Of a stretch of 64,000 nt of DNA, positions 1 to 39,743 are shown one piece after another. The DNA is from Escherichia coli (lineage in GTDB: Bacteria; Pseudomonadota; Gammaproteobacteria; Enterobacterales; Enterobacteriaceae), in assembly GCF_024700885.2 (NCBI RefSeq), contig NZ_CP117016.1. One strand, 5' to 3'. Within the stretch, counting starts at the first letter, position 1. Every line of letters begins with the position of its first letter. The notes under the pieces were generated by a model that saw nothing but the letters and a program-made list of their open reading frames with translations, did not search any database and was not told the origin of the DNA. The position numbers and the translations under genes are program-made.

Positions 1-350
1 GCTGCAAGGAACATAGTGTAGGTTGCCATATGCGAGGCAGGGAAAAAAAGTGTACAACCACCAATATACAGCGTCAGGCCAATTAAAATTGCCACCTTAT
101 AACTGGTCTTTTTAATCACAAGGGATGCTGGTATTGCAATTAAAAAATAACCTCCATAAAATGCGCTCTGCACCAATGCTGAAGCAAAGTTACTTAGCGA
201 AAATACACTTTTGAATTGAGTGATTAATATGTCATTTAATGCAGCTGCGCATCCCCATAGCGGGAATAAACACGATAACAAAATAAACTGGAACAAGGGA
301 GTCTTATTCAGATATCCATCAGGCATCTGAATGATGTTTTTATCGTTCAT
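1..350 (-). CDS. deoP: Deoxyribose permease (MFS, FucP-like), N-terminal part; gene continues past window start
   Basis: Minus-strand ATG at 350 gives MNDKNIIQMPDGYLNKTPLFQFILLSCLFPLWG..., FucP-like TM segments; lies 27 bp downstream of deoK. Confidence 0.65.
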   Translation of the reverse strand, partial: MNDKNIIQMPDGYLNKTPLFQFILLSCLFPLWGCAAALNDILITQFKSVFSLSNFASALVQSAFYGGYFLIAIPASLVIKKTSYKVAILIGLTLYIGGCTLFFPASHMATYTMFLA

Positions 351-377
351 AGTGCTACCTTTAACTGTGCAGGATGA

Positions 378-1298
378 TTATTCGTTTAAGGTTAAAAATT
401 CATTAAATTGTTCAATACTCGGATAAGATGATTGCGTACCTTTCCCTGTGACGCTGAAAGCGGCAAAGAGAGCGGCTTTTTTCAAAGCGGCTTCAACATC
501 ACCGCTTTGAACATAATAATGGGAAAAGCAACCAATAAATGCGTCACCAGCGCCACTAGTATCAACAGCATTTACTTTGAATGCAGGAACATGGACTTCC
601 TGATCGCGGGTCATCCATAATGCGCCTTTTTCGCTCATGGTAACAATAATATTGTTCAGCCCTTTATCAACTAACGAACGTGCGGCCAAACGAATATGAT
701 CATAAGTATCAACCGACATACCGGTTAATATTTCCAGTTCTGTTTCATTCGGGATAAAGAAATCACATTTGCAGGCATAAGACATATCTAACTCACGCAA
801 TGCCGGAGCCGGATTTAATAACACTTCAATACCATTTATCTTACCAAACTCAATCGCGTGGTAAACTGTTTCCAGTTGAACTTCCAGTTGTAAAACGATC
901 AATTTGCATTTTTTCAGATCTTCTGCAGCTCGATCGATATCTTCCGGGGAAAGAAATTTATTCGCTCCCTTAATTATTAATATACTATTGCTCGAGTTGG
1001 CATTAACAAAGATCGGTGCAACACCACTGCTGGTACAGGGGACCTTCTCAACATAAGTGGTATTAATTCCCCATGATTCAAGATTACGAATAGTATTATC
1101 CGCAAAAATATCATCACCTACTTTAGTCAGCATCAGGACTTTTGAATTCAATTTAGCCGCCGCCACCGCTTGATTAGCACCTTTCCCACCACATCCGATT
1201 TTGAAGGCAGGTGCTTCCAGAGTTTCTCCTTCTTTAGGCATCTGATTAGTGTAAGTAATGAGATCCACCATATTGGAACCAATAACTGCAATGTCCAT
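378..1298 (-). CDS. deoK: Deoxyribokinase, ribokinase/PfkB family (306 aa)
   Basis: MDIAVIGSNMVD... with GG motif (KIGCGGKGANQA) and C-terminal DTSGAGDAF anion-hole motif; start taken at internal ATG with AGAGG RBS. Confidence 0.8.
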   Translation of the reverse strand: MDIAVIGSNMVDLITYTNQMPKEGETLEAPAFKIGCGGKGANQAVAAAKLNSKVLMLTKVGDDIFADNTIRNLESWGINTTYVEKVPCTSSGVAPIFVNANSSNSILIIKGANKFLSPEDIDRAAEDLKKCKLIVLQLEVQLETVYHAIEFGKINGIEVLLNPAPALRELDMSYACKCDFFIPNETELEILTGMSVDTYDHIRLAARSLVDKGLNNIIVTMSEKGALWMTRDQEVHVPAFKVNAVDTSGAGDAFIGCFSHYYVQSGDVEAALKKAALFAAFSVTGKGTQSSYPSIEQFNEFLTLNE

Positions 1299-11233: not shown

Positions 11234-11288
11234 GGTAATGCTGCCAACTTACTGATTTAGTGTATGATGGTGATTTTAAGGTGCTTGC

Positions 11289-11564
11289 GTGGCTTCCATT
11301 TCCATCAGATGTCCTTCCTGCTCCGCTACTGAAGGCGTGGTGCGTAACGGCAAAAGCACTGCCGGACATCAGCGCTATCTCTGCTCTCATTGCCGTAAAA
11401 CATGGCAACTACAGTTCACTTACACCGCCTCTCAGCCCGGTACGCACCAGAAAATCATTGATATGGCCATGAATGGCGTCGGATGTCGCGCCAGTGCACG
11501 CATTATGGGCGTTGGCCTCAACACGGTTTTACGTCACTTAAAAAACTCAGGTCGCAGTCGGTAA
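11289..11564 (+). CDS. insA: IS1 InsA
   Basis: [40 protein letters not shown]... Confidence 0.9.
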
Positions 11565-11986
11565 CCTCGCGCATACAACCGGGCAGTGATGTGATTGTCT
11601 GCGCTGAAATGGACGAACAGTGGGGCTACGTCGGTGCTAAATCACGTCAGCGCTGGCTGTTTTACGCGTATGACAGGATACGGAGGACGGTTGTGGCGCA
11701 CGTCTTCGGTGAACGCACTCTGGCCACACTGGAGCGTCTTCTGAGCCTGCTGTCGGCCTTTGAGGTCGTGGTATAGATGACGGATGGCTGGCCGCTGTAT
11801 GAATCACGCCTGAAGGGAAAGCTGCACGTTATCAGCAAGCGTTACACTCAGCGCATTGAGCGACATAATCTGAATCTGAGACAACATCTGGCAAGGCTGG
11901 GACGGAAGTCACTGTCGTTCTCAAAATCGGTGGAGCTGCATGACAAGGTCATCGGGCATTATCTGAACATAAAACACTATCAGTAA
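11483..11986 (+). pseudogene. insB: IS1 InsB frame with premature stop (TAG at 11774-11776)
   Basis: Copy 2 reads ...VVIWMTDGW (TGG); copy 1 reads ...VVV(stop)MTDGW (TAG). Confidence 0.85.
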
Positions 11987-12071
11987 GTTGGAGTCATTAC
12001 CTCCTCCCGAACTCAAAGCTATCATACAGATAATTACTGGTTAACCCTATATAGGGCATTTTAAAGTGTTG

Positions 12072-15351: not shown

Positions 15352-16736
15352 TTATTCAGCTGGCAGTGCTATGCGCCACGGAAGCAGTTCGCTGACCCGG
15401 TTGACCGGCCAGTCTGCTATGACGCCAGGCACATGGCGAAGGTAGCTTTCTGGATCCACGTCATTCAGTTTGCACGTCCCGATCAGGCTGTACAGTAGCG
15501 CTCCCCGCTCACCACCATGGCCAGAGCCGAAGAACAGGGTCTTCATCTTTTCACGCAACCAGCTTTCCAGGGATTTCAACAGCGGTTTCGTTTTTCGCTG
15601 ACGTTCAGCAAGCCGCTGCTCTGCCGGCATTCCCCTTATATCCGCCTCTATGGCGTACAACTGACCGATCTGCTCCAGGGCTTCTTCCGTCAGTGCTGAC
15701 GGGATGCGGACGTGCACATCGTGGATCTTTCGGCGGGCATGAGCCCAGCAGGCAGCTTCCGTTATCCCACCATTGCGATACAGCTCGTTGAACCCGGCGT
15801 ACGCATCCGCTTGCAGCACACCGCTGAAGCAAGCAAGATGAGTCTGCGGATGGATGCCTTTTCTGTCCGGGCTGTAAGCGAACCTCACTGCAGGTGCCAA
15901 CGCTGACCCGGCATTGCGGTCATCACGAACATACGCCCACAACCGCCCGGTCTTCGTCTTCTTATTACCCGGCAGCAGTACCTGGACCGGGGTATCATCG
16001 GCATGGAGTTTGCCGTCAGTCATGACATAGCCATGAAGCGCCTCTTCCAGCGGAGACAGCAGCCGGCAGCATGCATCCACCCAGCCCGACAGCAGTGAAC
16101 GGCTCAGCTCCACACCTTGCCGGCCGTATATTTCTGACTGGCAATACAGCGGGGTGTGCTCTGCATACTTCGAGGTCAGCACGCGGGCCAGCAGCCCCGG
16201 TCCGGCGATACCCCGCTCGATGGGCCGCGAAGGTGCAGGTGCCTGCACGATGGCATCGCACTGAGTACAGGCATGTTTTTCCCGTACCGTCCGGATAACC
16301 CGGAAGGCGCTACGCATCAACTCCAGCTGTTCGGCGGTATCCTCGCCCAGATAGCTCAGTGAACCGCCGCAGTTCGGGCAGCACGGCGCCGCAGGCAACA
16401 GTCGCTTTTCGTCACGGGGTAGTGATTCAGGGAACGGCTTACGGGTGCGGGTCTGACGCAACGGACGCTGTACTGCCGGGTCATACACCCTACCAGTCAG
16501 CGTATCGCTCTCTTTCTGAAGCCGGTTCAGATCGGCTTCCATTTGTGCGATACGGCGGGAGACTTTTTCGGAACGACTGCCGAAGTTCATCCGGCGGAGT
16601 TTATCCAGCTGCGCCTGCAGATGTCTATTTCGCGCTCCCGGTTGCTCAGCTTTTCCTGCAGGGCGTGGATCAGCGCTTCCTGTTCGGCCAGGCGCTGTTT
16701 CAGCAGGAAGATGTCGTCAGAAGAGATTTCGTTCAT
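15352..16736 (-). pseudogene. IS66 TnpC transposase with frameshift near the N-terminus
   Basis: MNEISSDDIFLLKQRLAEQEALIHALQEKLSNRERE... continues in another frame as ...QLDKLRRMNFGSRSEK...; shift lies around 16600-16630. Confidence 0.75.
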
Positions 16737-16785
16737 AAGCCCGTATTTTACCGGGCTTATTCTGTGACAACCAGGATAAAGAGAT

Positions 16786-17133
16786 TTACAGCATGGTCAG
16801 GGAGGTCAGCAGCCGCTTGGGCTGTCGCCAGTCGATACCTTCCAGCAGCATCGCCAGCTGCGCCTGCGTAAGGAACACTTTGCCATCACGGGCTGACGGC
16901 CAGGCGAAGCGCCCACGCTCCAGCCGTTTGGTCAGGAGGCACAGTCCGTCACCGGTGGACCACAGCAGTTTAACCTGACTGCCGCTGCGGCCCCGGAAAA
17001 TGAAAACATGGCCGGACATGGGATCGTCTTTCAGCGCCGTCTGTACTTTCGCAGCCAGGCCGTTGAAGCCATTTCTCATATCGGTGATACCGGCAACCAG
17101 CCAAATTTTGGTCCCGGAAGGTAACGGGATCAT
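16786..17133 (-). CDS. IS66 Orf2 (TnpB)
   Basis: MIPLPSGTKIWLVAGITDMRNGFNGLAAKVQ... Confidence 0.85.
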   Translation of the reverse strand: MIPLPSGTKIWLVAGITDMRNGFNGLAAKVQTALKDDPMSGHVFIFRGRSGSQVKLLWSTGDGLCLLTKRLERGRFAWPSARDGKVFLTQAQLAMLLEGIDWRQPKRLLTSLTML

Positions 17134-17468
17134 CGCTTCAGTTCCTGTATCAGCAGAGTCAGGAGCTTTTCGCTGACATTGCCATTGAAGCGGAGCGTCC
17201 CGTGCCGGAACGTTACCTCACAGCTGATACTGAGGGTTTCCGGGTCCTCTGCGAGCGATTCTGGCTGTTCGGCAGCTGCATCGGGAGTCACAGGAAGTAG
17301 CTGGGGGCTCTCTGAAGAAGGTAATAGCAGCTTTCCCTCGCGCCATTGTTGTCGCCATTTGAACAACAGATTGGCGTTAATGCCATTTTCAAGAGCAAGT
17401 TTTGAGATGGATATCCCGGGTTCACAGGAGGCAGCAACGAGCTGCTGTTTAAATTCGGGAGGATAATT
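17130..17468 (-). pseudogene. IS66 Orf1 (TnpA) without a canonical in-frame ATG start
   Basis: Frame encodes ...PEFKQQLVAASCEPGISISKLALENGINANLLFKWRQQWREGKL but is preceded by TGA with no ATG. Confidence 0.6.
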
Positions 17469-17602
17469 AGGGCAGCCTTTTCACCTGCCGGGAGTCACAT
17501 TTTTCTGCATATCTGACACTTTGGTTCCCACTACTTATTTGGTGGACACCACTTTGTCTAATTCGTCAGATTCTGACCAGACGGTTCAGGCTGTACGCTT
17601 AC

Positions 17603-17708
17603 CACTATTTTATCCCTGTTGAATTTGGTTAAGCCGGTGCAGACGCGCCGGGAAACGCACACCTGAACCGGCACAATAAAATACAATACAACCCCCTGTT
17701 ACTGGAGA
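17603..17708. repeat. Second copy of the 106-bp sequence at 3432-3537, abutting the IS66 terminus
   Basis: Exact match. Confidence 0.85.
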
Positions 17709-17864
17709 TACGAATGGAATGACGAGGCAGCCTGTCAGTCACAGGGGGCTGTTGGCATAAAATCAACGGAAAGGCCACCAACACCGGAATTAAGCTCCAC
17801 AGTCCCCGCACTGGCAATCCATTCCCGGGAAAGGCATCACCGCAAACTGCTCCGGAGGCAACCA

Positions 17865-18299
17865 TTACAGCCTCTGTAACGGATTATCAGCCCTGGCATC
17901 TTCCGACGGCACCTCCTGCCGCCCCCACGCCCTGCTGTATACCCCGGTACCGCAGCGTGGGCAGCACTTTTCCCCCTCATAATCTTCGTCACACATCACA
18001 CAAAACCACTTTCTCACCTTCACCGTATAATCCGGAACCGTCATGCCCTGCAGATGCAAACGACGGGCCTCTTTCTCCGCCGGGTCAAGCCAGGTACATC
18101 GCAGCAGGATTTTTTCAGCGACAGTCATCTGGTCATGTTCAAACCACGGTGGTTGTCCGTCATTGCCCCGCTGAAGTGTTAACGGGCATCCACAGGACAC
18201 ACAGCACAAAACGTCCTGTCGGTTGTGCTTCGCAGCTTCTTTCGCCGTAACAAAATGGCCTTTGCTGTCATTCGCCATATAACAGTTCAGAATTCGCAT
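17865..18299 (-). CDS. Cys-rich zinc-ribbon protein (144 aa), paralog of the next gene
   Basis: CxxC...PWFEH...WxCxxC...YxGExxCxxCxTG pattern shared with 18287-18694; AGGAGG RBS. Confidence 0.55.
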   Translation of the reverse strand: MRILNCYMANDSKGHFVTAKEAAKHNRQDVLCCVSCGCPLTLQRGNDGQPPWFEHDQMTVAEKILLRCTWLDPAEKEARRLHLQGMTVPDYTVKVRKWFCVMCDEDYEGEKCCPRCGTGVYSRAWGRQEVPSEDARADNPLQRL

Positions 18300-18694
18300 A
18301 TTTCCTCCTGAGTTGTCCGGGGAATACTGAATCCTCCGGTCTGGCAGTGTGTGCAGTACTGCTCCCCATAATAATCGTGGTGACATTGTCTGCAGTGCCA
18401 GCTGGCTTTACGCACCACGGGTAAGGCATCCGATACGAATTGCTGCAGACGTTTAATCAACTGTATTTCTCTGCGCTCCGGCCTGACATAAGGGCACTGT
18501 TGACCGTGCTCTGTCAGCCTGTCGTCAGTGTGTTCAAACCAGGGAAGTTCAGTGTCGTATTGCGGATGGTATCTGAGTGCACTGCCACACAAGTGGCAGG
18601 TGTAGTTAGCATAAGGTGCGTCCTGTGCAGTACGGGCGCCCGTCAGACGTCCGTTGCCATCAAGAGCGATAAAGGATTTTGCGTACATAGTCAT
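18287..18694 (-). CDS. Cys-rich zinc-ribbon protein (135 aa), paralog
   Basis: Same Cys/PWFEH pattern; overlaps the downstream paralog start by 13 bp. Confidence 0.55.
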   Translation of the reverse strand: MTMYAKSFIALDGNGRLTGARTAQDAPYANYTCHLCGSALRYHPQYDTELPWFEHTDDRLTEHGQQCPYVRPERREIQLIKRLQQFVSDALPVVRKASWHCRQCHHDYYGEQYCTHCQTGGFSIPRTTQEEICEF

Positions 18695-18947
18695 ATTCCT
18701 TAGCCGCCAGACGACACGCAGGCAACAGCCGTCCCGGTACGGGCAGCGTGGTCAGGGTGTGAATGGCGGTTCAGTTAAAATCTGGACTGGAGTTTGGGTA
18801 AAGCAGGCTGGTTGCTGTTACAGCACTGTGGTTGTCACACAATGGAACACTGACGTAAAAAACAGTCAGTGGGCGAGTGGATACATCGTTGCCGCCAGAC
18901 AACAACCCATACTTTTGGTTTGCCGGATATTGGCGCGCCAGTCGTGC

Positions 18948-19517
18948 TCAACTCCGGCTACAGCCAAAATTGCGCTCACCGGTGCAGTGAGCTTTGGTAT
19001 GCTCTTTCGCCAGATAGTCAGCACGTTCCAGCACTTGCTGAAAGCCGGTGTCATCATTACGCGCCAGCCACACCGCCGGCCAGGCCGGAAAATGCACCAG
19101 CGTGGCATGGCACCCGACATCCACTCCCAGGGCACTGCACCACGCCTGTTTAATCATCCCGGCCAGAGACTCCGGAGCGCGGTAATCACCGGCACGACAC
19201 CAGGTATCCCGGTTGACCAGCAGCATCAGGTGATAGTGTTTTTTACCTTTGAACTCCCCAAACTCCCGGGCCCAGACGTAATGCAGGGGGGTGGGATGCA
19301 CGCGTTTACCTTTCCGATGCTTACGTTTCTGGTAAGCGTCGATTCGGGCTTTCAGGGCATTGATGAAGCGGGATATCACAGCTGCGTCCGTTGCTGCCGG
19401 TACATCCGGGAGACGCAGGTCAACCCGCAATGCCGTCAGGCGGGGATGAACATTCAGTGCGTGCCGCACCGTCTCACGAATACGTTGCTGCCAGAAGGGG
19501 TTGTATTTGTAGGTCAT
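18948..19517 (-). CDS. Inovirus Gp2-like / YagK-YfjJ family protein
   Basis: LTALRVDLRLPD...HYHLMLLVNRD... resembles CP4-type prophage YagK/YfjJ; GGAGA RBS before MTYKYNPF. Confidence 0.6.
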   Translation of the reverse strand: MTYKYNPFWQQRIRETVRHALNVHPRLTALRVDLRLPDVPAATDAAVISRFINALKARIDAYQKRKHRKGKRVHPTPLHYVWAREFGEFKGKKHYHLMLLVNRDTWCRAGDYRAPESLAGMIKQAWCSALGVDVGCHATLVHFPAWPAVWLARNDDTGFQQVLERADYLAKEHTKAHCTGERNFGCSRS

Positions 19518-21144
19518 GGTTAAATCTCCGTATGGTTCATACGGAATAGCCACGTCGTAAAAAATGCGCAGAGTCCCTGAAGTGACCTCCGGCAGGACAC
19601 TGTCTCAGGCACTCTGTGATAACCCGAACGGTCGTCTCCGGACTGACGGTTGAATTTTCAGCGTCGTTTTTTAATGTAAAAAACCGGTTACGGGTAAGGC
19701 TGTGAGGAGGGAGTGATGGTGATACGCAAAAAGAAGTGCAGGGATTGTGGAAACGCGATTACTCATAATACAGTGTGTTGCCCGTATTGTGGTTCTGTCG
19801 ACCCCTTCGGCTACTACCGGAATACAGACCGTATCGTTACCATACTGCTGGCGCTGATTATTGTGGTCCTGCTGACTACTGTCAGCGTCAGTGTGTGTAT
19901 ACTGTGTAGCTGGTGAGATAACGGTTCATGTATCCCCTGAGCTGACAGTGTACCGTGTATATTAAGCGTAACCGACAGGTTCTCCTTCATACCATATTAA
20001 ATTTTCCAGGGATTGCCGCTGCCTTATTTCGTCTCATACAGGAAAACTCATCTGGGTTTCTGACAAATACGCGAAACTCACAGCCCCTCAATATCAACCA
20101 CACGTTGTAAGCCGGTAATACCTGAAAATCAGCCTATTACCGCCCACGCCTCCGGCACCATTCCCTTTTGATTTCGAATTCTTTGTTGTCGCTATACCGC
20201 TTAATGTTCCCGGTCCTCCGGTGCAGATAACACCGGAGTCATCGTAGCGCTGCTTCAATATTCAGGTGACATATTTCCAGACGGAAGCCGGCGCGCGATC
20301 GTAAAGTTTGTTCATTGTCAGTTCTGCCAGCCGGTTGTCAACGGCAGAGTTAAAGGCTTCCAGCTCCGCAAGGGTAAGTTTATAACGCGTGTGGGAATTC
20401 ACTTTTCCCGCGTCTCCTGACGTATTACGGGCTGCCACTTACCTGGTGTCCCGCAATACAGCCTTAGTGTTCCGTTATCGGGGATCCGGACGCACCGCAA
20501 CAACCGGGGAAGTATTTCTGGTTTAGAGCATTGTCAAGAGGGATTTCTCAGCCCCTCACTCACCGCTCAGTCTCAGGGCAGGAGCATTAATACGCTCAGT
20601 TCATGTCTTATACAGGAATGGGCACAGGGGGAGCTGGCGTGTCACTGCTGATTTTACGCATCAGCGTTCATGTATCTGCACTCTGATACATGAACGATTC
20701 ACAGCGCTCTGTTACCGGAGAGATTTACTCTCTTAGCTTACTCTGGCAAATCCTTTACGTTACTCTCTGATGACTTCTTATATTTATAATACCAATCAGA
20801 CAGCCTTATCCCATCGGTGATATCAGTCTCCTCCTCGCCAGGAACGGGCTGACTCACTGTAACCACCTCCGAAAACAACTCTGCAATTATCAGAACGCCT
20901 GCTTCTCTCCCTGTCCTCACGAAAACTATCCCCTCTTTATCGCGCGTGCGTGCGGAAGCATCTTTTCGCAACAACCACCCGGTATACCGGTACGGCTCAG
21001 CCACCGCAACCTCCCCGTTTATCTCCTGGCGGTCACATTCCCGATTATTTTTTACGTTTCTCCCCGGTTGTTATGCCGGTGAAGGTGGCGCGCTGTTTTC
21101 ATGACCACACCGGCTGGTTTAACAACATCCGGAGGAACATTCTC

Positions 21145-21351
21145 ATGGCTACCCCAGTTTCACTGATGGATGACCAGATGGTCGACATGGCATTTATCAC
21201 TCAACTGAACGGCCTGACAGATAAGTGGTTTTACAGGCTCATCAGGGATGGGGCCTTTCCGGCTCCCATCAAGCTGGGCCGCAGCTCCCGCTGGCTGAAA
21301 AGTGAAGTGGAAGCCTGGCTACAGGCGCGTATTGCACAGCCCCGCCCGTAA
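21145..21351 (+). CDS. alpA: AlpA-family phage regulatory protein (68 aa)
   Basis: MATPVSLMDDQMVDMAFITQLNGLTDKWFYRLIRDGAFPAPIKLGRSSRWLKSEVEAWL; GGAGG RBS. Confidence 0.8.
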   Translation: MATPVSLMDDQMVDMAFITQLNGLTDKWFYRLIRDGAFPAPIKLGRSSRWLKSEVEAWLQARIAQPRP

Positions 21352-21439
21352 TTTCTGACCGTTATCCGTTCACCCGCAGCAGACGTAATCCCCGGCCTGC
21401 CGGCGGCATTCTGCTGCCTGTTATATCCCCGTGAGGAAT

Positions 21440-22048
21440 ATGAAAATGAAACAACAGTATCAGACCCGCTACGAATGGCTCCACGAAAGCTACCAGAAAT
21501 GGCTGACCGGCTTCACCCGGCACGCCGTATCCTGGGGCGTGTGTCATCCGAATATCTACTACTTCCATAATCTGACGCCCGGTTGGGTGTCATTCAATGG
21601 TGAAAAACCGGAGATTGCCATCGTACCCCAGAGCCTGCACCGGCTGATTTATGGCCCTGACAAACGGGCCACGCCGCCCCTGGATGATGATCTGATTGTG
21701 AATTTATGCACCAGTGAACATCTGCTGGTTCATCATCCGATGCTGGAAGGCATTCTCCTGTCTGAATGTGAACGTCTGAGGCAGCGTTCTCTGGCAAATA
21801 AACTGATCAGCCTCTTCCGTCAGTTTGGTGGCACGGAGTTGCGCCTCAAACTGGTCTGGCTTTGCTGGCTTGATTTAATGACCGGAAACAGCCTTGAAGA
21901 CTGGAAAGAGAACCTGAAACGGAAATCAGAAAAAGAGCTGGAGGAATGGATCATCAACCGTCAGAGGCAGAGCGCAGCACTGACGGATCTGATGGATCAG
22001 TACGTGCTCCTGGCATACCGCACAACGGTTGACGATAGCCGCAACTGA
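21440..22048 (+). CDS. Hypothetical island protein (about 202 aa)
   Basis: ORF directly downstream of alpA; no family recognised. Confidence 0.35.
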   Translation: MKMKQQYQTRYEWLHESYQKWLTGFTRHAVSWGVCHPNIYYFHNLTPGWVSFNGEKPEIAIVPQSLHRLIYGPDKRATPPLDDDLIVNLCTSEHLLVHHPMLEGILLSECERLRQRSLANKLISLFRQFGGTELRLKLVWLCWLDLMTGNSLEDWKENLKRKSEKELEEWIINRQRQSAALTDLMDQYVLLAYRTTVDDSRN

Positions 22049-23233
22049 TGCCGGTTGCTTCCGGAAGGTGTGACAAAATACGGAAATGATGATGCTCCCG
22101 GCCCCGCATGCTCACCTGCAGAGCGTGTTCGTCGTCATCATACTGAGCCATGACGGGCGTCTTAAGGGCATCCTGTCATTGCTGAGCAGGCAACACCACC
22201 AGAGGAGCCACGGACAGGGATGTTCTTTACAGCCCGATACACGCCAGGTTCTCAGCAGACTGAATGTGCAGGTGCGGTTATTCACCAGAAATGGCATGCT
22301 GCGGTACATACCCATCCTGGTGACAATATGTACGTGGCGACAGCGATCCCGGCACTGTGGAAGAGACTCACTCAGCCTGCAGGATATTCTTTCCGGCATC
22401 CGGGAATGTCCGCCTGAATGCAAACAGGATGATATTTGAATCCGTAATACTGTTCTTTCATCATAAATAATTTATGCAGATACAGTTAACCGTTACAGTA
22501 GCCGGTTTGTTTTACCGGGAAATAATATCCGTCAGACTGATGCCGGAACATATCTGAAACACGTTATGATGTTTTGTTATCAGAAATGTTGTATATTCTT
22601 ATCCGTGGCGACAGTTTAATGCCCTCTGGTATCACCTTGGATTTGCCCCTATATTTACGGGACACGCCTCTTTTCATTGTGCTCCTTTTCAGACTTCATT
22701 TTCCGTAAGTGTTCCCCGGCATAAAGGAGGTACCTTTCTGGCGTTTATAACTCTCTTTATCGGTGACGCCGGTAATACAGGGAATACCACACCGACAAAC
22801 GAGGTATTAACAGACGATATTTCAGTGTCCATAATTTTTCTGTCCGGTTAAATAACGTCAGTCTGCTGCCCTCTGACTGTAATCATCAAAGCCGGAATGC
22901 ATACCGGGTTACAACGTAAAAAAAGTGATGCTGGCCCCCGGTGCAGCTGGCGGGCGAAACATGTTTACCTTTCAATACCCCCTGTCTGCAGTCTCCACTC
23001 TTCCATCCTCTTAAGCTACGTCGGCCACATGAGTGCACTTCCATGATAACAGGTATTCCTGTCAGCATAACGAAGCCGGTTACCTTCCCTTCCTCCTGCA
23101 TTTCCTGTCAGAATGACTGTACAGCGCGCAGATTGCCTTTTTATTGACCACCTTAATATACCATTATAAACTTCTTTTTATCATGTTATTATCACCTTAT
23201 TATGTTTAATTTTTAAGCAACCGGAGAAAGAGG

Positions 23234-24151
23234 ATGGTTCAGAAAATTTTGTCGGATAAGGTTATGAATGAAAGAACAAATGCGTATTACTCTTATTATC
23301 TTGGAGAGCGTAATATCTCCGTACTGCCCCTTAATGTTTATGATCCCCCGGAACGTTTTATCGCTTACATAAAAAAAAACAGAGAAAATCTGAACATCAC
23401 ACTTTCAGATTTTGAACTTGAACAAATCATTTCTGGTATGCGTCTGAAGGCACTGGCCTCCCTGGTGCCCCTGGAAAAAATATCCTGGATCGCGGGCAGT
23501 GAACGTGCATGCTTATTTTCCTGGTATCTGTTGATGCAGTTTATCCAGAATAACAGGACAAAAATAAGCGCAGACTTGCTTCAAAAGAATAAACTGTATC
23601 TTAAAGAAGAGTATTTAGAAGGGAATGCCTTCCCGTCGGACTCATCGACACAGTTCAGACAAATACTCAGAGTTCTCGATATTCTTTCTGATAAGAATTT
23701 GCGGGATGAGTGGATAATCCAGACCAAAGACAGATGGATGCGGGCATTTAAATCAAAGAGTCCTTTCAGTTACCTCCTCCCGGAGAACGAACATGAATGC
23801 ATATGGACATGGAATTATTTGAAGGGAAAAAATATTGCACTGGAAAAACTGGCCAGTTTTCCTGGTTCTGCTGATATTTACCACGCAATTCACCTTTCAT
23901 TTGACATATGGGTTACCTGTCCACTCACCTCACCTGACGATATAAAAAATTTCAGAAACAGTTTCAATAAGGCCAAGGCGCAGCGCAAGTACAAAAAAAT
24001 GCAGGAAGATAAAGTCAATGTACAGTTTTTTCTTGACGCAGAAACCAGGGCGCAGCTCAAAGAATTATCGAGGGTCAGAAGACTCAGTACCGGCGAAATG
24101 CTGCATGACCTGATTGTTGAAGAGTATAAAAGGTACCGACATTCCAGATAA
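23234..24151 (+). CDS. Hypothetical protein (305 aa)
   Basis: ORF with GGAGAAAGAGG RBS directly upstream of the GTPase gene; no family recognised. Confidence 0.4.
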   Translation: MVQKILSDKVMNERTNAYYSYYLGERNISVLPLNVYDPPERFIAYIKKNRENLNITLSDFELEQIISGMRLKALASLVPLEKISWIAGSERACLFSWYLLMQFIQNNRTKISADLLQKNKLYLKEEYLEGNAFPSDSSTQFRQILRVLDILSDKNLRDEWIIQTKDRWMRAFKSKSPFSYLLPENEHECIWTWNYLKGKNIALEKLASFPGSADIYHAIHLSFDIWVTCPLTSPDDIKNFRNSFNKAKAQRKYKKMQEDKVNVQFFLDAETRAQLKELSRVRRLSTGEMLHDLIVEEYKRYRHSR

Positions 24152-33706: not shown

Positions 33707-36598
33707 ATGATTGGTACAACACCTTATCATGCGAAATATTTTGCGCATGAACTTTCCATTCTCCATTCAAACAATGGGGTGGACCGTCTGTCTCAATCGC
33801 TGTTTGATGCAAGCGTAGATCTAAATCCTCATCAAATTGAGGCGGCTCTTTTTGCTATTGAAAATCCGCTAAGCAAAGGTGTTGTGCTTGCCGATGAAGT
33901 TGGTTTAGGTAAAACCATTGAAGCGGGGTTAGTGCTTTGCCAGTTGTGGGCTGAAAGAAAACGTAAACTGTTGATCATTTGTCCTGCTTCACTGCGTCGC
34001 CAATGGGCGAGCGAGTTACAGGAAAAGTTCAATCTACCTTCTCAGGTGTTGGACGCGAAAACGTATAGCCAGCTTCAAAAAGAAGGGATCCATAATCCCT
34101 TAAATAATAAATCGATCACTATCATGTCATACCACTATGCTGCTCGGTTAGAAGAAAAATTGGTGGCTGAAATGTGGGATCTGGTTGTTATCGACGAAGC
34201 CCATAAACTGCGTAATGCTCATCGAGAAAGTAACAAAATGGGGCAAGCGTTAAAGCGTGCGCTTGATGGGCGGAAAAAATTACTACTGACCGCAACGCCT
34301 TTACAGAATTCGTTAATGGAACTGTATGGCATGTCGACGCTTATAGATGAACATACCTTCGGCGAAGTTAAAGCGTTCAGAAAGCAATATATGCAGGCAG
34401 ATAGCGATATTGCGGAGTTGAAGGGGCGATTGTCGCGTTTTATCAAACGAACTTTACGCAAGAATGTGCTGGAGTACATCAAGTATACAGAACGTAAAGC
34501 GATCACTATTCCTTTCTATCCGAGCGAACAGGAGCAGGATCTTTATGAACGCGTACAAAAATTGCTTGAACGTGAGGATAGCTATGCCTTACCAAAACGA
34601 CACCGGCATCTGACGGGGCTTATTCTCAGAAAGCTACTTTCCTCAAGTACGAAAGCTGTATTGAATAACTTGCAGATCCTTAAGAGTCGTTTAGAAAGGT
34701 TAAAGCTGGAAGGTATCGTTGAAGATGATATGAACATCATCCAACAGATCATAATGGATGACGATCTTGAAGATGACATCGTGGAAGATGCCGAATCAGT
34801 GGCTTTAGATACCGAGTGCAAAGTTGTCGATTCAGACGCGCTTCAGGCAGAAATCAATGAGCTGGAATCACTCATTGTCAAAGCAGAACAGATTGGCACT
34901 GATACCAAATCAAAAGAGTTGCTTTCTGGCCTGGAGCAAGGTTTTGCACAGCTTGCCGAAATGGGGGCTGCAAAAAAAGTCATCATCTTCACGGAGTCAA
35001 TGCGAACTCAACAGTATCTTGCACATTTTCTGGAAAACAATGGCTACCAGGGGAAAGTAGTAACCTTTAGTGGCACAAACAATACACCGCAGGCAAACAA
35101 GATCTACCAGCAATGGCGCGAGGAATATCAGGGATCTTCTCGTATTACCGGGTCGGCGCAAATTGATAAACGCTCGGCTTTGATCGACCACTTCAAAGAT
35201 CATGCTGAAATCATGATAGCTACAGAAGCTGCAGCTGAAGGGGTGAACCTGCAATTTTGTTCGCTACTGATCAATTACGATTTACCCTGGAACCCACAAC
35301 GCATTGAACAGCGTATTGGACGTTGTCACCGATACGGGCAAAAATTTGATGTGGTTGTTATTAACTTCCTCAATCAGCGAAACCAGGCCGATCAACGCGT
35401 TCTTGAACTCTTAACTGAAAAGTTCAGCCTGTTTGATGGCGTGTTTGGCGCATCGGATAGTGTGCTTGGCAGCATAGAAAATGGTGTGGATTTTGAAAAA
35501 AGGATCCAGTCAATTTATGAGTCATGCCGTACCCCCGAGGAGATAGAGCTGGCTTTTGAAAGGTTGCAGAAAGAGCTGGAAGATGAAATCAATCTCAAGA
35601 TGCAGAAGACGCAAGAACAGTTGCTTGAGCATTTTGATGAAGATATTCACGATATCCTTAAAATAAGGCTTGATGAAGCTCGGGAGCGTCTGGATAAAGT
35701 CGGTCGTTGGTTTTGGGCCGTGACCTGTCAGCAGCTCAAACAATATGCTGATTTTGATCATGAGCATCATCGTTTCACTTTACGTGAATCAGTAAATGAA
35801 CTGCCTGTCGGGCAGTACCAGCTGTTGCGCAAAGATGGTAGGCAAAATAGTGCGTTACAAATGCAGGATCACCACAGTTTTGCATATCGGATCAATCATC
35901 CGCTGGGTGAGTACGTCATTGAGGGGGCTAAGGTCCAGGAGACGAAAACAGCTGAAGTCATCTTCGATTACAGTAACCACACAACGAAAGTCTCGGTGGC
36001 TGAGCAGCTGAAAGGGCAATCAGGGTGGTTAACACTAAATTTGCTTACTGTTGATGCGTTTAACAGGCAGCAATTTTTAGTCTTTACCGCAAAAACTGAC
36101 AACGGACGTGTGGTAGATGGTGAAGCTTGTAAACGTCTGTTCAACTTGTCTGCAATAACCAACGAAAAGCTGGATAATTCGGCAAGTTCAGATGCATTAC
36201 CTGATGACTTGATCTTACTCAAGAACAGGCAAATTGACGCCAGACTTGCGGAAGTTCTGGAGCAGAACAATGTCCTTTTTGAAGCTGAAAGAGATAAGCT
36301 GGAAAAATGGGCTGAAGATATGATCTTTGCGGCGGAAGAAGCATTACGCGATACCAAAATGCAAATCAAGTCGTTAAAGCGAGAAGCCAGACTGGCGCAA
36401 TCGATGGAAGAACAAAAGCAAAACCAGGAAAAGCTGAAGCTACTGGAACGGCAGCAGAAACGCCAACGTATGGAAATTTTTGACATTGAAGATGAGATCG
36501 CTGACAAGCGGGATGAACTCATCAGTGCCCTTGAAGAGCGGATGAAGCAAAAAACGGATATCACCGAGCTTTTTTCCATCCGCTGGAAAGTTATTTAA
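33707..36598 (+). CDS. SNF2-family DEAH-box ATPase/helicase (963 aa) with C-terminal coiled-coil tail
   Basis: Walker A DEVGLGKT (33893-33916), motif II VVIDEAHKLRN (DEAH 34193-34204), motif III LLLTATPLQNS, helicase-C NLQFCSLLINYDLPWNPQRIEQRIGRCHRYGQ; AGAGAGA RBS. Confidence 0.85.
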   Translation: MIGTTPYHAKYFAHELSILHSNNGVDRLSQSLFDASVDLNPHQIEAALFAIENPLSKGVVLADEVGLGKTIEAGLVLCQLWAERKRKLLIICPASLRRQWASELQEKFNLPSQVLDAKTYSQLQKEGIHNPLNNKSITIMSYHYAARLEEKLVAEMWDLVVIDEAHKLRNAHRESNKMGQALKRALDGRKKLLLTATPLQNSLMELYGMSTLIDEHTFGEVKAFRKQYMQADSDIAELKGRLSRFIKRTLRKNVLEYIKYTERKAITIPFYPSEQEQDLYERVQKLLEREDSYALPKRHRHLTGLILRKLLSSSTKAVLNNLQILKSRLERLKLEGIVEDDMNIIQQIIMDDDLEDDIVEDAESVALDTECKVVDSDALQAEINELESLIVKAEQIGTDTKSKELLSGLEQGFAQLAEMGAAKKVIIFTESMRTQQYLAHFLENNGYQGKVVTFSGTNNTPQANKIYQQWREEYQGSSRITGSAQIDKRSALIDHFKDHAEIMIATEAAAEGVNLQFCSLLINYDLPWNPQRIEQRIGRCHRYGQKFDVVVINFLNQRNQADQRVLELLTEKFSLFDGVFGASDSVLGSIENGVDFEKRIQSIYESCRTPEEIELAFERLQKELEDEINLKMQKTQEQLLEHFDEDIHDILKIRLDEARERLDKVGRWFWAVTCQQLKQYADFDHEHHRFTLRESVNELPVGQYQLLRKDGRQNSALQMQDHHSFAYRINHPLGEYVIEGAKVQETKTAEVIFDYSNHTTKVSVAEQLKGQSGWLTLNLLTVDAFNRQQFLVFTAKTDNGRVVDGEACKRLFNLSAITNEKLDNSASSDALPDDLILLKNRQIDARLAEVLEQNNVLFEAERDKLEKWAEDMIFAAEEALRDTKMQIKSLKREARLAQSMEEQKQNQEKLKLLERQQKRQRMEIFDIEDEIADKRDELISALEERMKQKTDITELFSIRWKVI

Positions 36599-36603
36599 TT
36601 GAT

Positions 36604-39600
36604 TTGAAAGAGAAAATAATGAGTAAGTACAACGAATTAGTTAAGAAGCTAAAAGAAATTTTTCAGATTGATCGACCAGAACTGGATTTCGGTATTTATC
36701 GTATTTTAAATGCACGTGCTGATGAAATTAACGACTATCTGGATAATAAGCTGAAGGCCAAAATCCAGTCTGCGCTGGCGGATGCAGGAAATGCCAATAA
36801 ATCAGAATTAGAACATCAGTTGCAACTGACAATAAAAGCGGCAACTGATGCGGGTGTGGACCCTGCTGATAGCCCGAAAGTACAGGAGCTTAAAAAGCAA
36901 CTGGCGGCTATGGCATCCGGAGCAAATGAGCATGAAAATGCAGTATTTTCCCATCTGCTGACTTTCTTTTCGCGTTATTATGACAACGGCGATTTTATCA
37001 GCAAACGCCGTTATAAAGGTAATACCTACGCCATCCCTTATTCTGGCGAAGAAGTGATGTTGCACTGGGCAAATAAGGACCAGTACTACATTAAAAGCGG
37101 TGAAAACTTTGCTAATTATTCATTTAAATTAGATGATGGTCGTAAAGTTAGCTTTAAATTGCTCGCAGCGGACACAGCAAAAGATAACCGTAAAGATAAT
37201 GAATTAGATCGCTGCTTTGTACTTATTGAGCCGCATGTTCGTACCAAAATTGATGAAGAAGGCGATGAGTACGAACAAGAATATAAGCCAGTAGAAGTGG
37301 TGAAAACTTCATCTGTGGTTGACGGTAAACTCGTTGAAACAGAAGAGTTAGTTATTCACTTCGAATATAAGGCCATGAAAAAGGGCACTAAGCAGGATGC
37401 TTTAGTGCAGTCCGCTATTTCAACAATTCTGGCTGATAAAACAGTTCAACAGCATTGGGTTGATCTTGCTAAACGTGCGCCAACAGAAAAAAATCCGTCA
37501 CGTACAGAGTTGGAGCGTCATCTTACAACTTATACCCAGCGTAATACAGCAGACTACTTTATTCATAAAGATCTCGGTGGTTTTTTAACTAACGAACTGG
37601 ATTTTTATATTAAAAATGAAGTAATGAATCTCGATAATGTGCAAAATGCAGAAGTGTTTGCCAATATTGAGAAACAATTGCGCATGATTCAATGTTTGCG
37701 TACTGTTGCGCTGGAACTCATTGCATTTTTGGCACAAATTGAGAATTTCCAGAAGAAACTTTGGACTAAGAAGAAGTTTGTTGTTTCAAGTAATTACTAT
37801 ATTACTATGGACAAAATAAGTTCAGAGTTTTACAGTGAAATAATTAATAATGAAAAAATAGTCCAAGAATGGATTGAATTAGGCATCTTAGATGAGAAGC
37901 CATCTACCTCTGATGTGGAGTTGCTCAAGTTTGCAACAGTTAATTTATCTCATTTAAACGGAGATCTAAGGAAAAAAATATTAAATAGTATCAATGATAT
38001 TGACGATAATGTTGATGGCGTTTTTATTAATGGTGATAATTATCAAGCGTTAAATCTTTTGAAGAAAAAATATAATTCCGTAATTGATTGTGTCCATATA
38101 GATCCACCATATAACACAGATACTAGTGGTTTTTTATATAAAAATAGCTTTAAGCATTCAAGTTGGCTGAGTATGATGGATAGCCGTTTGCTTTTTGTTA
38201 AAAATTTACTCAGTGAAAATGGTGTATTTTTTTGTCATATTGATGAAAATGAATATGAGCGACTTTATTTAATTAATAAACAGTTAGGTCTTATCGATGC
38301 AGGGACAATTATTTGGGATAAACGCAATCCCATGAATGGTGGTAGTGGCATTGCGATTCAACATGAATATACTACTTGTTTTACAAAGAACATGATTTCT
38401 ATTAATAAGAAAAATGAGAATGTATTAGAAATACTCGAATATGCAAAATTAATTAAGAATAAATATCCTGTAATTAACAGTGAAGCAAAGAAAAAATTTT
38501 ATGATTGGGTAACAAAGAATAAAAAACTTACTGGAGGTGAACAAGCTTACAAATATATCGATGAGAAAGGTCGAGTGTACCAGAGTGTCAGCCTCCGTGC
38601 CCCAGAGCCAAGGACTGACAAGAAATTCTATATACCATTAATTCATCCAGTTACCGGGAAACCATGCGCTATGCCACCAAATGGTTTTTCTCGTACCCCA
38701 GAAACATTAAAAGATATGATGGATAAGGGGGATATACTATTTGGTGTTGATGAAACAACGCAACCTAGACAGAAAGCATATTTATATGCTGACGCTAAAA
38801 AGCAAATAACATCAATAATTCAGGATGCTAAAAAAGGAAAAACTCAAACAACTCATCTTGGAATTGATTTTCCTTATTGTCACTCAACTTCTTTATATAA
38901 TTATTTAATTGGGAGTGCATCTCATAATAAAAATGAGATAATATTAGATTTTTTTGCTGGTTCAGGAACAAGTGGCCACTCAGTCATAGAGTTGAATCGT
39001 AAGGATGCGGGTTCAAGGAAATATATACTTGTTGAACAGGGGGAGTATGCACAAAATGTAACTTTAAGCAGGTTGAGAAAAGTTATATTCAGTAGCAATT
39101 GGAAAGATGGTAAAGCTATGGATTCAACGACAGGCTCATCTCATATACTTAAAGTTATGAAAATAGAAAGTTACGAAGATGTATTAAATAGCCTTCGATT
39201 TGAACAACAAAAAGAAATAAAAGATCTTTTTGATACAGTGAATGAATCAGTAGCAAATGAGTATTTAATAAAATATATGCTTGAAACAGAAAGCAAAGGT
39301 TCACTACTCAGTACTGATAATTTCAAAAAACCATTTAACTACGAAATGGATATTGCGACGGATTCCGCCGGTGCCACTGAGCGTAAAAACATCGATTTAG
39401 TTGAAACTTTCAACTATCTCATTGGTTTACATGTGAAATCCATCGAATCCAATATCGAACGTGGCTATGTGCGTGTTGAAGGAATGCTACCAACAGGCGA
39501 GCGTACCCTTATTCTGTGGCGCGATTGCGACAAGATCGGTTATGAAGAATTGAATAAATATGCCAACCGATTCGATTTATATGCAAAAGAAAACACGTTC

Positions 39601-39741
39601 GACGTTATCTATATCAATGGCGATCATAACTTACCTACCGCCTTTACTGTTGATGAAGAAGACGGCGAGATTGTTCGTAGCCTGAAAATCCGCCAGATCG
39701 AACCTGAATTCTTGAACCTGATGTTTGCGGAGGAGGTTTAA
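36604..39741 (+). CDS. Large beta-class DNA methyltransferase (N6-adenine/N4-cytosine type; 1045 aa) with about 490-aa N-terminal extension
   Basis: Motif IV HIDPPYNTD (38101-38112) precedes motif I ILDFFAGSGTSG (38951-38977), the order seen in Type III Mod; starts 6 bp after the SNF2 stop. Confidence 0.8.
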   Translation: MKEKIMSKYNELVKKLKEIFQIDRPELDFGIYRILNARADEINDYLDNKLKAKIQSALADAGNANKSELEHQLQLTIKAATDAGVDPADSPKVQELKKQLAAMASGANEHENAVFSHLLTFFSRYYDNGDFISKRRYKGNTYAIPYSGEEVMLHWANKDQYYIKSGENFANYSFKLDDGRKVSFKLLAADTAKDNRKDNELDRCFVLIEPHVRTKIDEEGDEYEQEYKPVEVVKTSSVVDGKLVETEELVIHFEYKAMKKGTKQDALVQSAISTILADKTVQQHWVDLAKRAPTEKNPSRTELERHLTTYTQRNTADYFIHKDLGGFLTNELDFYIKNEVMNLDNVQNAEVFANIEKQLRMIQCLRTVALELIAFLAQIENFQKKLWTKKKFVVSSNYYITMDKISSEFYSEIINNEKIVQEWIELGILDEKPSTSDVELLKFATVNLSHLNGDLRKKILNSINDIDDNVDGVFINGDNYQALNLLKKKYNSVIDCVHIDPPYNTDTSGFLYKNSFKHSSWLSMMDSRLLFVKNLLSENGVFFCHIDENEYERLYLINKQLGLIDAGTIIWDKRNPMNGGSGIAIQHEYTTCFTKNMISINKKNENVLEILEYAKLIKNKYPVINSEAKKKFYDWVTKNKKLTGGEQAYKYIDEKGRVYQSVSLRAPEPRTDKKFYIPLIHPVTGKPCAMPPNGFSRTPETLKDMMDKGDILFGVDETTQPRQKAYLYADAKKQITSIIQDAKKGKTQTTHLGIDFPYCHSTSLYNYLIGSASHNKNEIILDFFAGSGTSGHSVIELNRKDAGSRKYILVEQGEYAQNVTLSRLRKVIFSSNWKDGKAMDSTTGSSHILKVMKIESYEDVLNSLRFEQQKEIKDLFDTVNESVANEYLIKYMLETESKGSLLSTDNFKKPFNYEMDIATDSAGATERKNIDLVETFNYLIGLHVKSIESNIERGYVRVEGMLPTGERTLILWRDCDKIGYEELNKYANRFDLYAKENTFDVIYINGDHNLPTAFTVDEEDGEIVRSLKIRQIEPEFLNLMFAEEV

Positions 39742-39743
39742 GA

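Follow-up and report, generated by a model that had tools for sequence, protein, structure and literature searches.

The question raised by this locus is whether the interval of about 1.6 kb between a YagK/YfjJ-family gene and an AlpA-family gene (positions 19518–21144; Table 1) marks the place of a lost integrase. The interval lies in a stretch of Escherichia coli DNA of 64,000 nucleotides, referred to here as the window. A sequence-only reading had described it as a gap without an intact gene where an integrase would be expected, and had taken the surrounding CP4-like module for an immobilised remnant. The boundaries given there were right, as was the lack of a long ORF: none exceeds 88 aa, and the largest three in the gap measure 88, 67, and 58 aa. 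The statement that an intact gene is missing does not hold, because three coding sequences of 66 aa, 58 aa ("Hha/YmoA family"), and 88 aa are annotated here by RefSeq/PGAP in identical or near-identical genomes, and the first of them, a zinc-ribbon gene, is intact and conserved. The overall picture is very probably that of an ordinary island junction in which the hha3 gene has been beheaded and to which an integrase never belonged.

Table 1. Positions in the window of the features in and next to the gap between the yagK-like gene and alpA
Feature	Position	Strand	Basis or remark
YagK/YfjJ-family ("inovirus Gp2 family") gene	18948–19517	−	Left edge of the gap; PF11726, E 1.3e-47; PGAP CDS of 570 nt
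Small gene, 66 aa, N-terminal CxxC...CxxC zinc ribbon, then hydrophobic C-terminal tail	19716–19916	+	WP_001297219.1 in 042, E24377A, and MLI114
Spacer, 345 nt, between the convergent zinc-ribbon gene and hha remnant	19917–20261		Alignment
hha3-type ORF, 58 codons, GTG start, 5'-truncated Hha/YmoA-family gene	20262–20438	−	PF05321, primer matches, WP_001344112.1
A-run, 4 A versus 5 in the alleles of L005, L014, L015, and L019	20403–20406	−	Alignments
Window-type segment, 361 nt	20418–20778		Replaces 569 nt of the islands with full-length alleles
88-codon ORF, GTG start, annotated as hypothetical	20738–21004	−	PGAP/RefSeq CDS
Region upstream of alpA	21005–21144	+	Highly conserved across all sister islands (alignment)
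AlpA-family HTH gene, 68 aa	21145–21351	+	Right edge of the gap; PF05930, 32.2 bits (gathering score 21)

The window is collinear with the genome of strain MLI114 (NZ_CP117013.1, 4559570–4623569, reverse strand) at 99.997% identity. Of 5426 complete E. coli genomes, 3741 contain the 2-kb region around the gap; the copy number per genome has a median of two and a maximum of eight. It belongs to a multi-copy, CP4-44-like backbone that carries two zinc-ribbon genes, the yagK-like gene and alpA together with the genes typical of the "flu-yeeR" type, namely those for a GTPase, Ag43, DUF932, antirestriction, JAB/RadC-like, DUF987, and YeeU/CbtA proteins, all of which were found in the MLI114 segment and the E24377A annotation. 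AlpA, YagK/YfjJ, the YeeP/YfjP-type GTPase, DUF932, antirestriction, RadC-like JAB, and DUF987 proteins and the CbtA/YeeU-type toxin–antitoxin are gene families that the window shares with CP4-57 and CP4-44 of E. coli K-12, and Ag43 is also shared by the window and CP4-44. The copy in MLI114, E24377A, and 042 forms part of the leuX (tRNA-Leu) island, downstream of cargo including fec and lpxM/virK. The affiliation of the right-hand boundary gene, which scored above the Pfam gathering score, is in line with its match to PHROG 66 ("excisionase and transcriptional regulator", E 2.4e-9); no tblastn match at E ≤ 0.01 was obtained between the window AlpA and K-12 alpA. Relative to the sister islands, of which about 15 loci were sampled out of the thousands that exist, the dN/dS values were 0.02–0.18 for alpA and 0.2–0.4 for the yagK-like gene. 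The gap is the normal, conserved yagK-like/alpA junction of a multi-copy, tRNA-associated island backbone, here the CP4-44-like "flu-yeeR" module of the leuX island.

An integrase would be expected in the gap only if the layout of CP4-57 were assumed, which is not applicable to the leuX-island type. CP4-57 of K-12 has the order ssrA, intA, yfjH, alpA, yfjI, yfjJ, with intA 1.2 kb from alpA and intA–yfjH–alpA within 2.7 kb, whereas in the window yagK is located divergently upstream of alpA, and the zinc-ribbon gene and hha lie between them. The arrangement with an integrase beside alpA at the tRNA/tmRNA-proximal end was found neither in the window nor in about 15 sister loci. No integrase is annotated in the window and a tRNA search of it returned none. 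Using K-12 IntA and the integrase of the 042 leuX island as tblastn queries against the 64-kb window, the best E-value was 1.0, and no match fell into 19518–21144. Annotation and tblastn thus agree with the sequence-only reading that the window is free of an integrase, whereas the similarity to P4/CP4 integrases or regulators for which it had proposed a search of the gap did not appear: the search with the two integrases was empty, and the protein fragment encoded there is an Hha and not a P4 regulator.

The sister loci inspected across the gap (042, E24377A, DETEC-P80, OkiPb01692, O157 644-PT8, L009–L012, L014, L015, and L019/L022; those with an intact hha were viewed with 10 kb of flanking sequence per side) share the gene order yagK-like gene, zinc-ribbon gene, hha, alpA, and in none of the approximately 15 loci was an integrase or a remnant of one detected between the yagK-like gene and alpA. 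In EAEC 042, an intact tyrosine integrase of 417 aa adjoins tRNA-Leu (leuX; 5081438–5082975), and the module is situated about 55 kb further in. The search of the flanks for int and a tRNA, which had been proposed as a check, led in MLI114 to leuX 28.5 kb past the start of the window; nearby are a small serine recombinase and just an N-terminal integrase fragment of 150 aa, which is 64% identical to the enzyme of 042. Since the integrase of MLI114 is only a stump, the island in this genome is probably not excisable by its own integrase. Immobilisation is therefore a plausible description of the island as a whole, but its cause is to be found beyond the window and has nothing to do with the gap. 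That a P4/CP4-type integrase or regulator was lost from the gap itself, leaving a scar, and that this loss immobilised a CP4-like module, could be argued from the short distance between intA and alpA in CP4-57, where only yfjH intervenes, from the lack of an integrase in the window, and from an IS66 element that cuts the left side of the module. We regard this as extremely improbable, because two P4-type integrases gave nothing better than E = 1, the fragment in the gap is derived from Hha rather than from an integrase, the 042 enzyme adjoins leuX, and the synteny of about 15 integrase-free sister loci, including those with an intact hha, contradicts it. The comparison indicates that no integrase ever sat in the gap.

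The minus-strand peptide that had been noticed in the gap and suspected to be a piece of a longer protein is encoded by the 58-codon ORF (20262–20438). This ORF is a member of the Hha/YmoA family by its profile match (PF05321, 64.1 bits at a cut-off of 25, E 1.5e-17) and matches Hha of the PDB in a phmmer search (E 2.7e-12); no match was obtained for it in PHROGs and PADLOC. The suspicion was correct, as the coverage of the Pfam, NCBIfam, and PDB versions of Hha is partial and intact 70-aa alleles exist at the same site. The ORF covers positions 14–57 of the 57 in the Pfam HHA model and positions 27–71 of the 72 in the NCBIfam Hha model, the latter with 66 bits and thus under the cut-off of 90 bits, and its C-terminal 46 residues align to residues 26–71 of Hha (PDB 1JW2/4ICG). 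A full-length Hha of about 67–72 aa with the N-terminal helices 1–2 is not encoded by it. In comparison with the H-NS co-silencers Hha, YmoA, and YdgT (Cnu) (PF05321; PDB 1JW2, 4ICG, 2K5S), about the first 25 residues are missing; only codons 12–58 (20262–20405) are in the ancestral Hha frame, whereas residues 1–11 derive from out-of-frame or non-hha sequence.

Judged by its sequence, the ORF is hha3 (EC042_4796) of EAEC 042. Exact matches to the window were obtained for both hha3-specific primers from the supplementary primer list of Prieto et al. (2016, Sci Rep, PMC4864382), one at 20397–20416 (minus strand) and the other at 20263–20284 (plus strand), whereas the hha2 reverse primer has three mismatches. 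The leuX island of 042 encodes a protein of the same accession (WP_001344112.1) next to the same 66-aa and 88-aa proteins, flanked by yagK-like and alpA-like genes, and no difference from hha3 of 042 was found at the sequence level, the neighbouring proteins being identical as well. According to the literature, Hha, which binds the N-terminal domain of H-NS, strengthens both the bridging and the silencing of genes acquired horizontally, and hha-null as well as hns mutants show de-repression of the flu-yeeR cluster. Both hha2 and hha3 have been tied to the flu-yeeR (Ag43) cluster and its repression by H-NS/Hha (PMC4864382; Bernabeu et al., 2019, BMC Genomics, PMC6480617), and as in this published setting, an Ag43 gene follows a few genes downstream of hha3 in the window. 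In qRT-PCR, the expression of hha3 was significantly below that of hha and hha2 (PMC4864382), and the deletion of hha3 altered the expression of one ag43 copy, EC042_2242 (Prieto et al., PMC4864382); in later work by the same authors, "hha null" denotes a strain lacking hha and hha2 only. The locus has therefore already been described: its hha3 is the paralogue known from the publications, the island backbone around it is very common in E. coli, and the feature is an ordinary one. In the two studies, hha3 counts as a paralogue, and their text never uses "truncated" (PMC4864382, PMC6480617), whereas we read it as a 5'-truncated derivative.

Using the reconstructed full-length sequence as a query, intact 70-aa alleles (MEVKTKEDWLYQFRRCSSRETLEKVISHTRYKL...) were found in E. 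coli along with relatives of 68–69 aa in Salmonella. In L019/L022, one intact allele (P0063) is placed precisely between the yagK-like gene and alpA. The intact alleles occupy the same site as hha3 of the window and show 88–92% nucleotide identity to its retained 3' part, but they differ from it in still having the ATG start and MEVKTKEDWLYQFRRCSSRETLE as well as the upstream region, all of which are lacking in the window. In alignments, the homology of the window to the loci with full-length alleles stops near position 20417, and BLASTN gave no HSP to L005 or L006 between 20417 and 20779. The 569 nt that are replaced here (Table 1) include the start codon of hha and about its first 19 codons along with the upstream region. 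A simple deletion of about 138 nt, as suggested by MAFFT, was discarded as the origin of the 5' loss; because BLASTN detected no homology over 20418–20778, the event is termed a rearrangement or a replacement whose breakpoint falls near 20417. An apparent Hha N-terminus in another reading frame (KPEILPRLLRCVRIPDNGTLRL, 20455–20520) was not significant in Smith-Waterman comparisons with three Hha N-termini (2000 shuffles, p = 0.02–0.06). In addition to the truncation, the A-run of the window is one base shorter than in the alleles compared, so that the codons upstream of it are out of the Hha frame. The same one-base loss occurs in the allele of O157 644-PT8, which is annotated as "frameshifted".

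Of 5426 complete E. coli genomes, 2827 contain the junction segment (query 20425–20780) at an identity of ≥95%; among the 2828 records, 819 showed ≥99% and 1999 showed 95–99% identity, and the sampled entries of the latter group were mostly devoid of an Hha annotation. Copies with the same junction (L009–L012) bear deletions of 4, 7, and 11 nt. The identity of the hha remnant drops to about 75% in L009, L011, and L012 and to 89% in L010, whereas the flanking genes there retain 92–99%; the copy in L010 is labelled "incomplete; missing N-terminus" by PGAP. Common variants of the 58-aa protein alter conserved Hha residues (W to R on 419 contigs, M to I on 754 contigs). The deletions, the low identity of the remnant, and the variants at conserved residues argue for a relaxed constraint after the truncation. 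Nearly all sampled island hha alleles have a lesion at the 5' end, namely a 14-nt deletion (L005, L014, L015), the one-base loss in the A-run (L006), or a 12-nt deletion with stops (L016). The 46 C-terminal codons display dN/dS values of 0.07–0.3 at a dS of up to 0.55 among divergent alleles, most of which are 5'-damaged. The simplest reading of these low values is repeated recent inactivation of a selected gene, accompanied by recombination among the alleles, of which that of L010 is a clear mosaic in the alignment.

The hha3 remnant thus appears to be a weakly expressed pseudogene that would give rise to a crippled product at best. A counterpoint is that PGAP calls the 58-aa ORF an intact Hha/YmoA protein and that the exact sequence is found on at least 1000 contigs. 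The alternative would be a functional short Hha3, made either from the entire ORF or as a 46-aa product from a GTG at 20400–20402, which binds the N-terminal domain of H-NS and tunes the silencing of ag43 and the island; it might act as a partial or a dominant-negative co-regulator. Consistent with such a role, about 820 genomes keep the ORF intact at ≥99% identity, and the low dN/dS of the C-terminal 46 codons extends even to alleles that have a 14-nt 5' deletion in common. The residue equivalent to Hha Asp48, which is essential for H-NS binding, is kept. Furthermore, the published effect of the hha3 deletion on EC042_2242 makes some residual activity of hha3 conceivable. Against this stands the loss of the first ~25 Hha residues, which comprise helix 1 and most of helix 2, so that formation of the four-helix fold is unlikely. 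The reported expression is the lowest of the paralogues (PMC4864382), frameshifts occur in same-junction copies, variants at conserved residues are frequent, and the later work of the same authors takes "hha null" as hha hha2 only. Neither a promoter (consensus scan) nor a strong ribosome-binding site (reading of the sequence) was detected for the ORF. We therefore consider a functional short Hha3 unlikely and prefer the pseudogene.

In contrast to hha3, the zinc-ribbon gene to its left is, by all indications of its conservation, a real and intact small gene. The ORF is open in every sister island checked (among them L005, L006, L010, and L015), and the gaps in the most divergent copies are 3 and 9 nt long, so that the frame is preserved. 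Its dN/dS values range from 0.1 to 0.7. Homologues of about 62–66 aa form 75 clusters with the common motif CRDCGNAITHNTVCCPYCG...GYYRNTDR. Pfam zinc-ribbon matches to the 66-aa protein were weak and all below threshold, and the matches in PHROGs were restricted to PHROGs that have no assigned function. The product is predicted to be a membrane protein, and the gene to have belonged to the gap from its ancestral state on. The sequence-only reading had named a small intact gene that has homologs as the kind of result that would speak against it, and the zinc-ribbon gene is such a case.

The 88-codon ORF at the other end of the gap had no match in Pfam, NCBIfam, PHROGs, and PADLOC. It is broken in six of eight other loci by an early stop or by indels of 2 or 11 nt (L005, L006, L009, L011, L014, L015), and only its last ~45 codons, including ...GIRLSDWYYKY..., are open across the sister islands. 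A gene over the whole length was discarded on account of the stops and non-triplet indels in most sister islands, and the ORF is probably not a conserved protein-coding gene. The conserved DNA of this region, together with the stretch immediately upstream of alpA, more likely represents the alpA control region. A consensus scan for promoters and terminators yielded counts at chance level in the gap and nothing above chance upstream of alpA. A TATAAT box facing alpA can be read from the sequence at 20785–20790 (plus strand).

The spacer between the zinc-ribbon gene and the hha remnant contains a block (~20150–20215) conserved in all sampled sister islands and differs by indels among sister copies. 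An 8-bp hairpin can also be read from its sequence. A small RNA or a structured cis-regulatory RNA, for instance an alpA leader, could be encoded in the non-coding stretches of the gap, as blocks of DNA have stayed conserved among divergent islands, including those in which the 88-codon ORF is broken, and as a perfect 12-bp inverted repeat is present at 20665–20696 inside the window-type segment. The lowest folding z-scores, −2.65 for 19917–20261 (plus strand; −0.71 on the minus strand) and −2.31 for 20439–20737 (minus strand), point in the same direction. They are modest, however, and the strand of the alpA leader reached just −0.88; with a range of −0.7 to −2.65, the folding of the three non-coding stretches is not convincing. 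The inverted repeat was dismissed as a functional element, because it is not conserved in the close relatives L010–L012. Rfam returned zero matches for 17000–24000 at E ≤ 1, the promoter and terminator counts correspond to chance, and recent common ancestry could alone account for the conservation. An RNA gene or element in the gap is thus very unlikely, although somewhat less so than an integrase scar, and the control region of alpA remains the preferred reading for the right-hand part.

In the history that we propose, the ancestral gap would have contained the zinc-ribbon membrane gene on the plus strand, a gene for a 70-aa island Hha acting as H-NS co-silencer on the minus strand, and the alpA control region, but no integrase. 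The Hha encoded by the ancestral island itself would have reinforced the silencing of the island by H-NS. A rearrangement with its breakpoint near 20417 then took away the promoter region and the start codon of hha along with about 19 codons, and the loss of one base in the A-run afterwards shifted the frame. What is left is the GTG-started ORF of 58 codons, in which residues 12–58 correspond to Hha residues 26–71, that is, the end of helix 2 and helices 3 and 4. With hha3 lost or crippled, the island, including Ag43 and its neighbours, would be silenced by the chromosomal Hha/YdgT and intact paralogues together with H-NS. AlpA may serve as a regulator of the island or as an excisionase-like factor, with its control region in the right-hand part of the gap.

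A variant of this history concerns the 5'-damaged island alleles in general, which may yield a selected "mini-Hha" of about 46–58 aa that consists of helices 3–4, starts at the GTG at 20400–20402 or 20436–20438, and titrates or re-tunes H-NS. If true, it would be a natural anti-silencer or partial co-silencer on the island, and its selection would explain the low C-terminal dN/dS across differently broken 5' ends. We consider this distinctly unlikely, slightly more so than a functional short Hha3, and the chance that a short C-terminal hha product is itself under selection is similarly small. Repeated inactivation of a formerly selected gene remains the reading that we favour.

For the annotation of such islands, the results imply that the integrase is to be sought beside the tRNA, tens of kilobases away, and not beside alpA. 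The main addition to the existing knowledge is that hha3, which is widely annotated and tracked by PCR, corresponds to a 5'-truncated Hha. PCR assays use the gene as a virulence marker, paralogue counts include it as an additional Hha, and RefSeq names its product an intact Hha/YmoA protein. As the first third of Hha is missing from hha3, which is probably inactive, a tally of the Hha paralogues in a genome would exceed the number of functional copies.

Several insertion elements and further genes were noted in and around the CP4-like module (table below). On its left side, it is cut by an IS66-family element, and a second IS66 is nested at the same place in E24377A. In every sister island, the adjoining zinc-ribbon gene pair is conserved beside the yagK-like gene. 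At its CbtA/YeeU end, the module is directly followed by three large genes and then by the restriction endonuclease gene; judged from the annotation, these genes form a defence-like cluster. With fimD truncated by the second IS1 copy, the window's strain has an incomplete usher for type 1 fimbriae.

Features in and around the CP4-like module
Feature	Position	Strand	Remarks
IS1, two copies	11234-12001; 49127-49894		91% identical to each other
IS66-family element	15352-17366		tnpC frameshifted; adjoins zinc-ribbon genes
Two paralogous DUF7828 + Zn_ribbon_11 protein genes	17865-18386; 18287-18694	-	neighbouring and overlapping
Truncated hha allele	20262-20438	-	58 codons
Block GGGATAAGRCTGTCTGATTGGTATTATAAATATA	~20780-20812		minus-strand sense
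SNF2-related protein, site-specific DNA methyltransferase, DEAD/DEAH helicase	~33708-43125	+	annotation of near-identical MLI114 segment
"Phosphorothioated DNA-binding restriction endonuclease"	~43787-44659	-	annotation of near-identical MLI114 segment
fimD, truncated	~49897-50787		
Island tyrosine integrase remnant	L003 (MLI114 stretch) 45837-46283 = MLI114 record 4645821-4646282		near leuX
Serine-recombinase-family gene	L004 (MLI114 stretch) 104-664		MLI114, close to tRNA

In the near-identical MLI114 genome, only the first 150 amino acids of the island's tyrosine integrase are left near leuX. Close to the tRNA, this strain carries a serine-recombinase-family gene (186 amino acids) in lieu of a full tyrosine integrase.

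The 88-codon ORF surrounding block GGGATAAGRCTGTCTGATTGGTATTATAAATATA upstream of alpA is broken in most of the sampled sister islands, but the block itself is retained in all of them. Within the block, on the plus strand, lies a perfect TATAAT (20785-20790), which points to alpA approximately 350 nt downstream.

The 5' lesions differ among the island-borne hha alleles of the window and the sister-island loci (L005, L006, and L014-L016). A 14-nt deletion, a 12-nt deletion, the loss of one base in an A-run, and the loss of the entire 5' end were identified, and these lesions apparently arose independently. Despite the damaged 5' ends, dN/dS is low in the C-terminal 46 codons of the island alleles. 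Taken together, the lesions and the low dN/dS could reflect either recurrent inactivation of island hha or selection on a short product.
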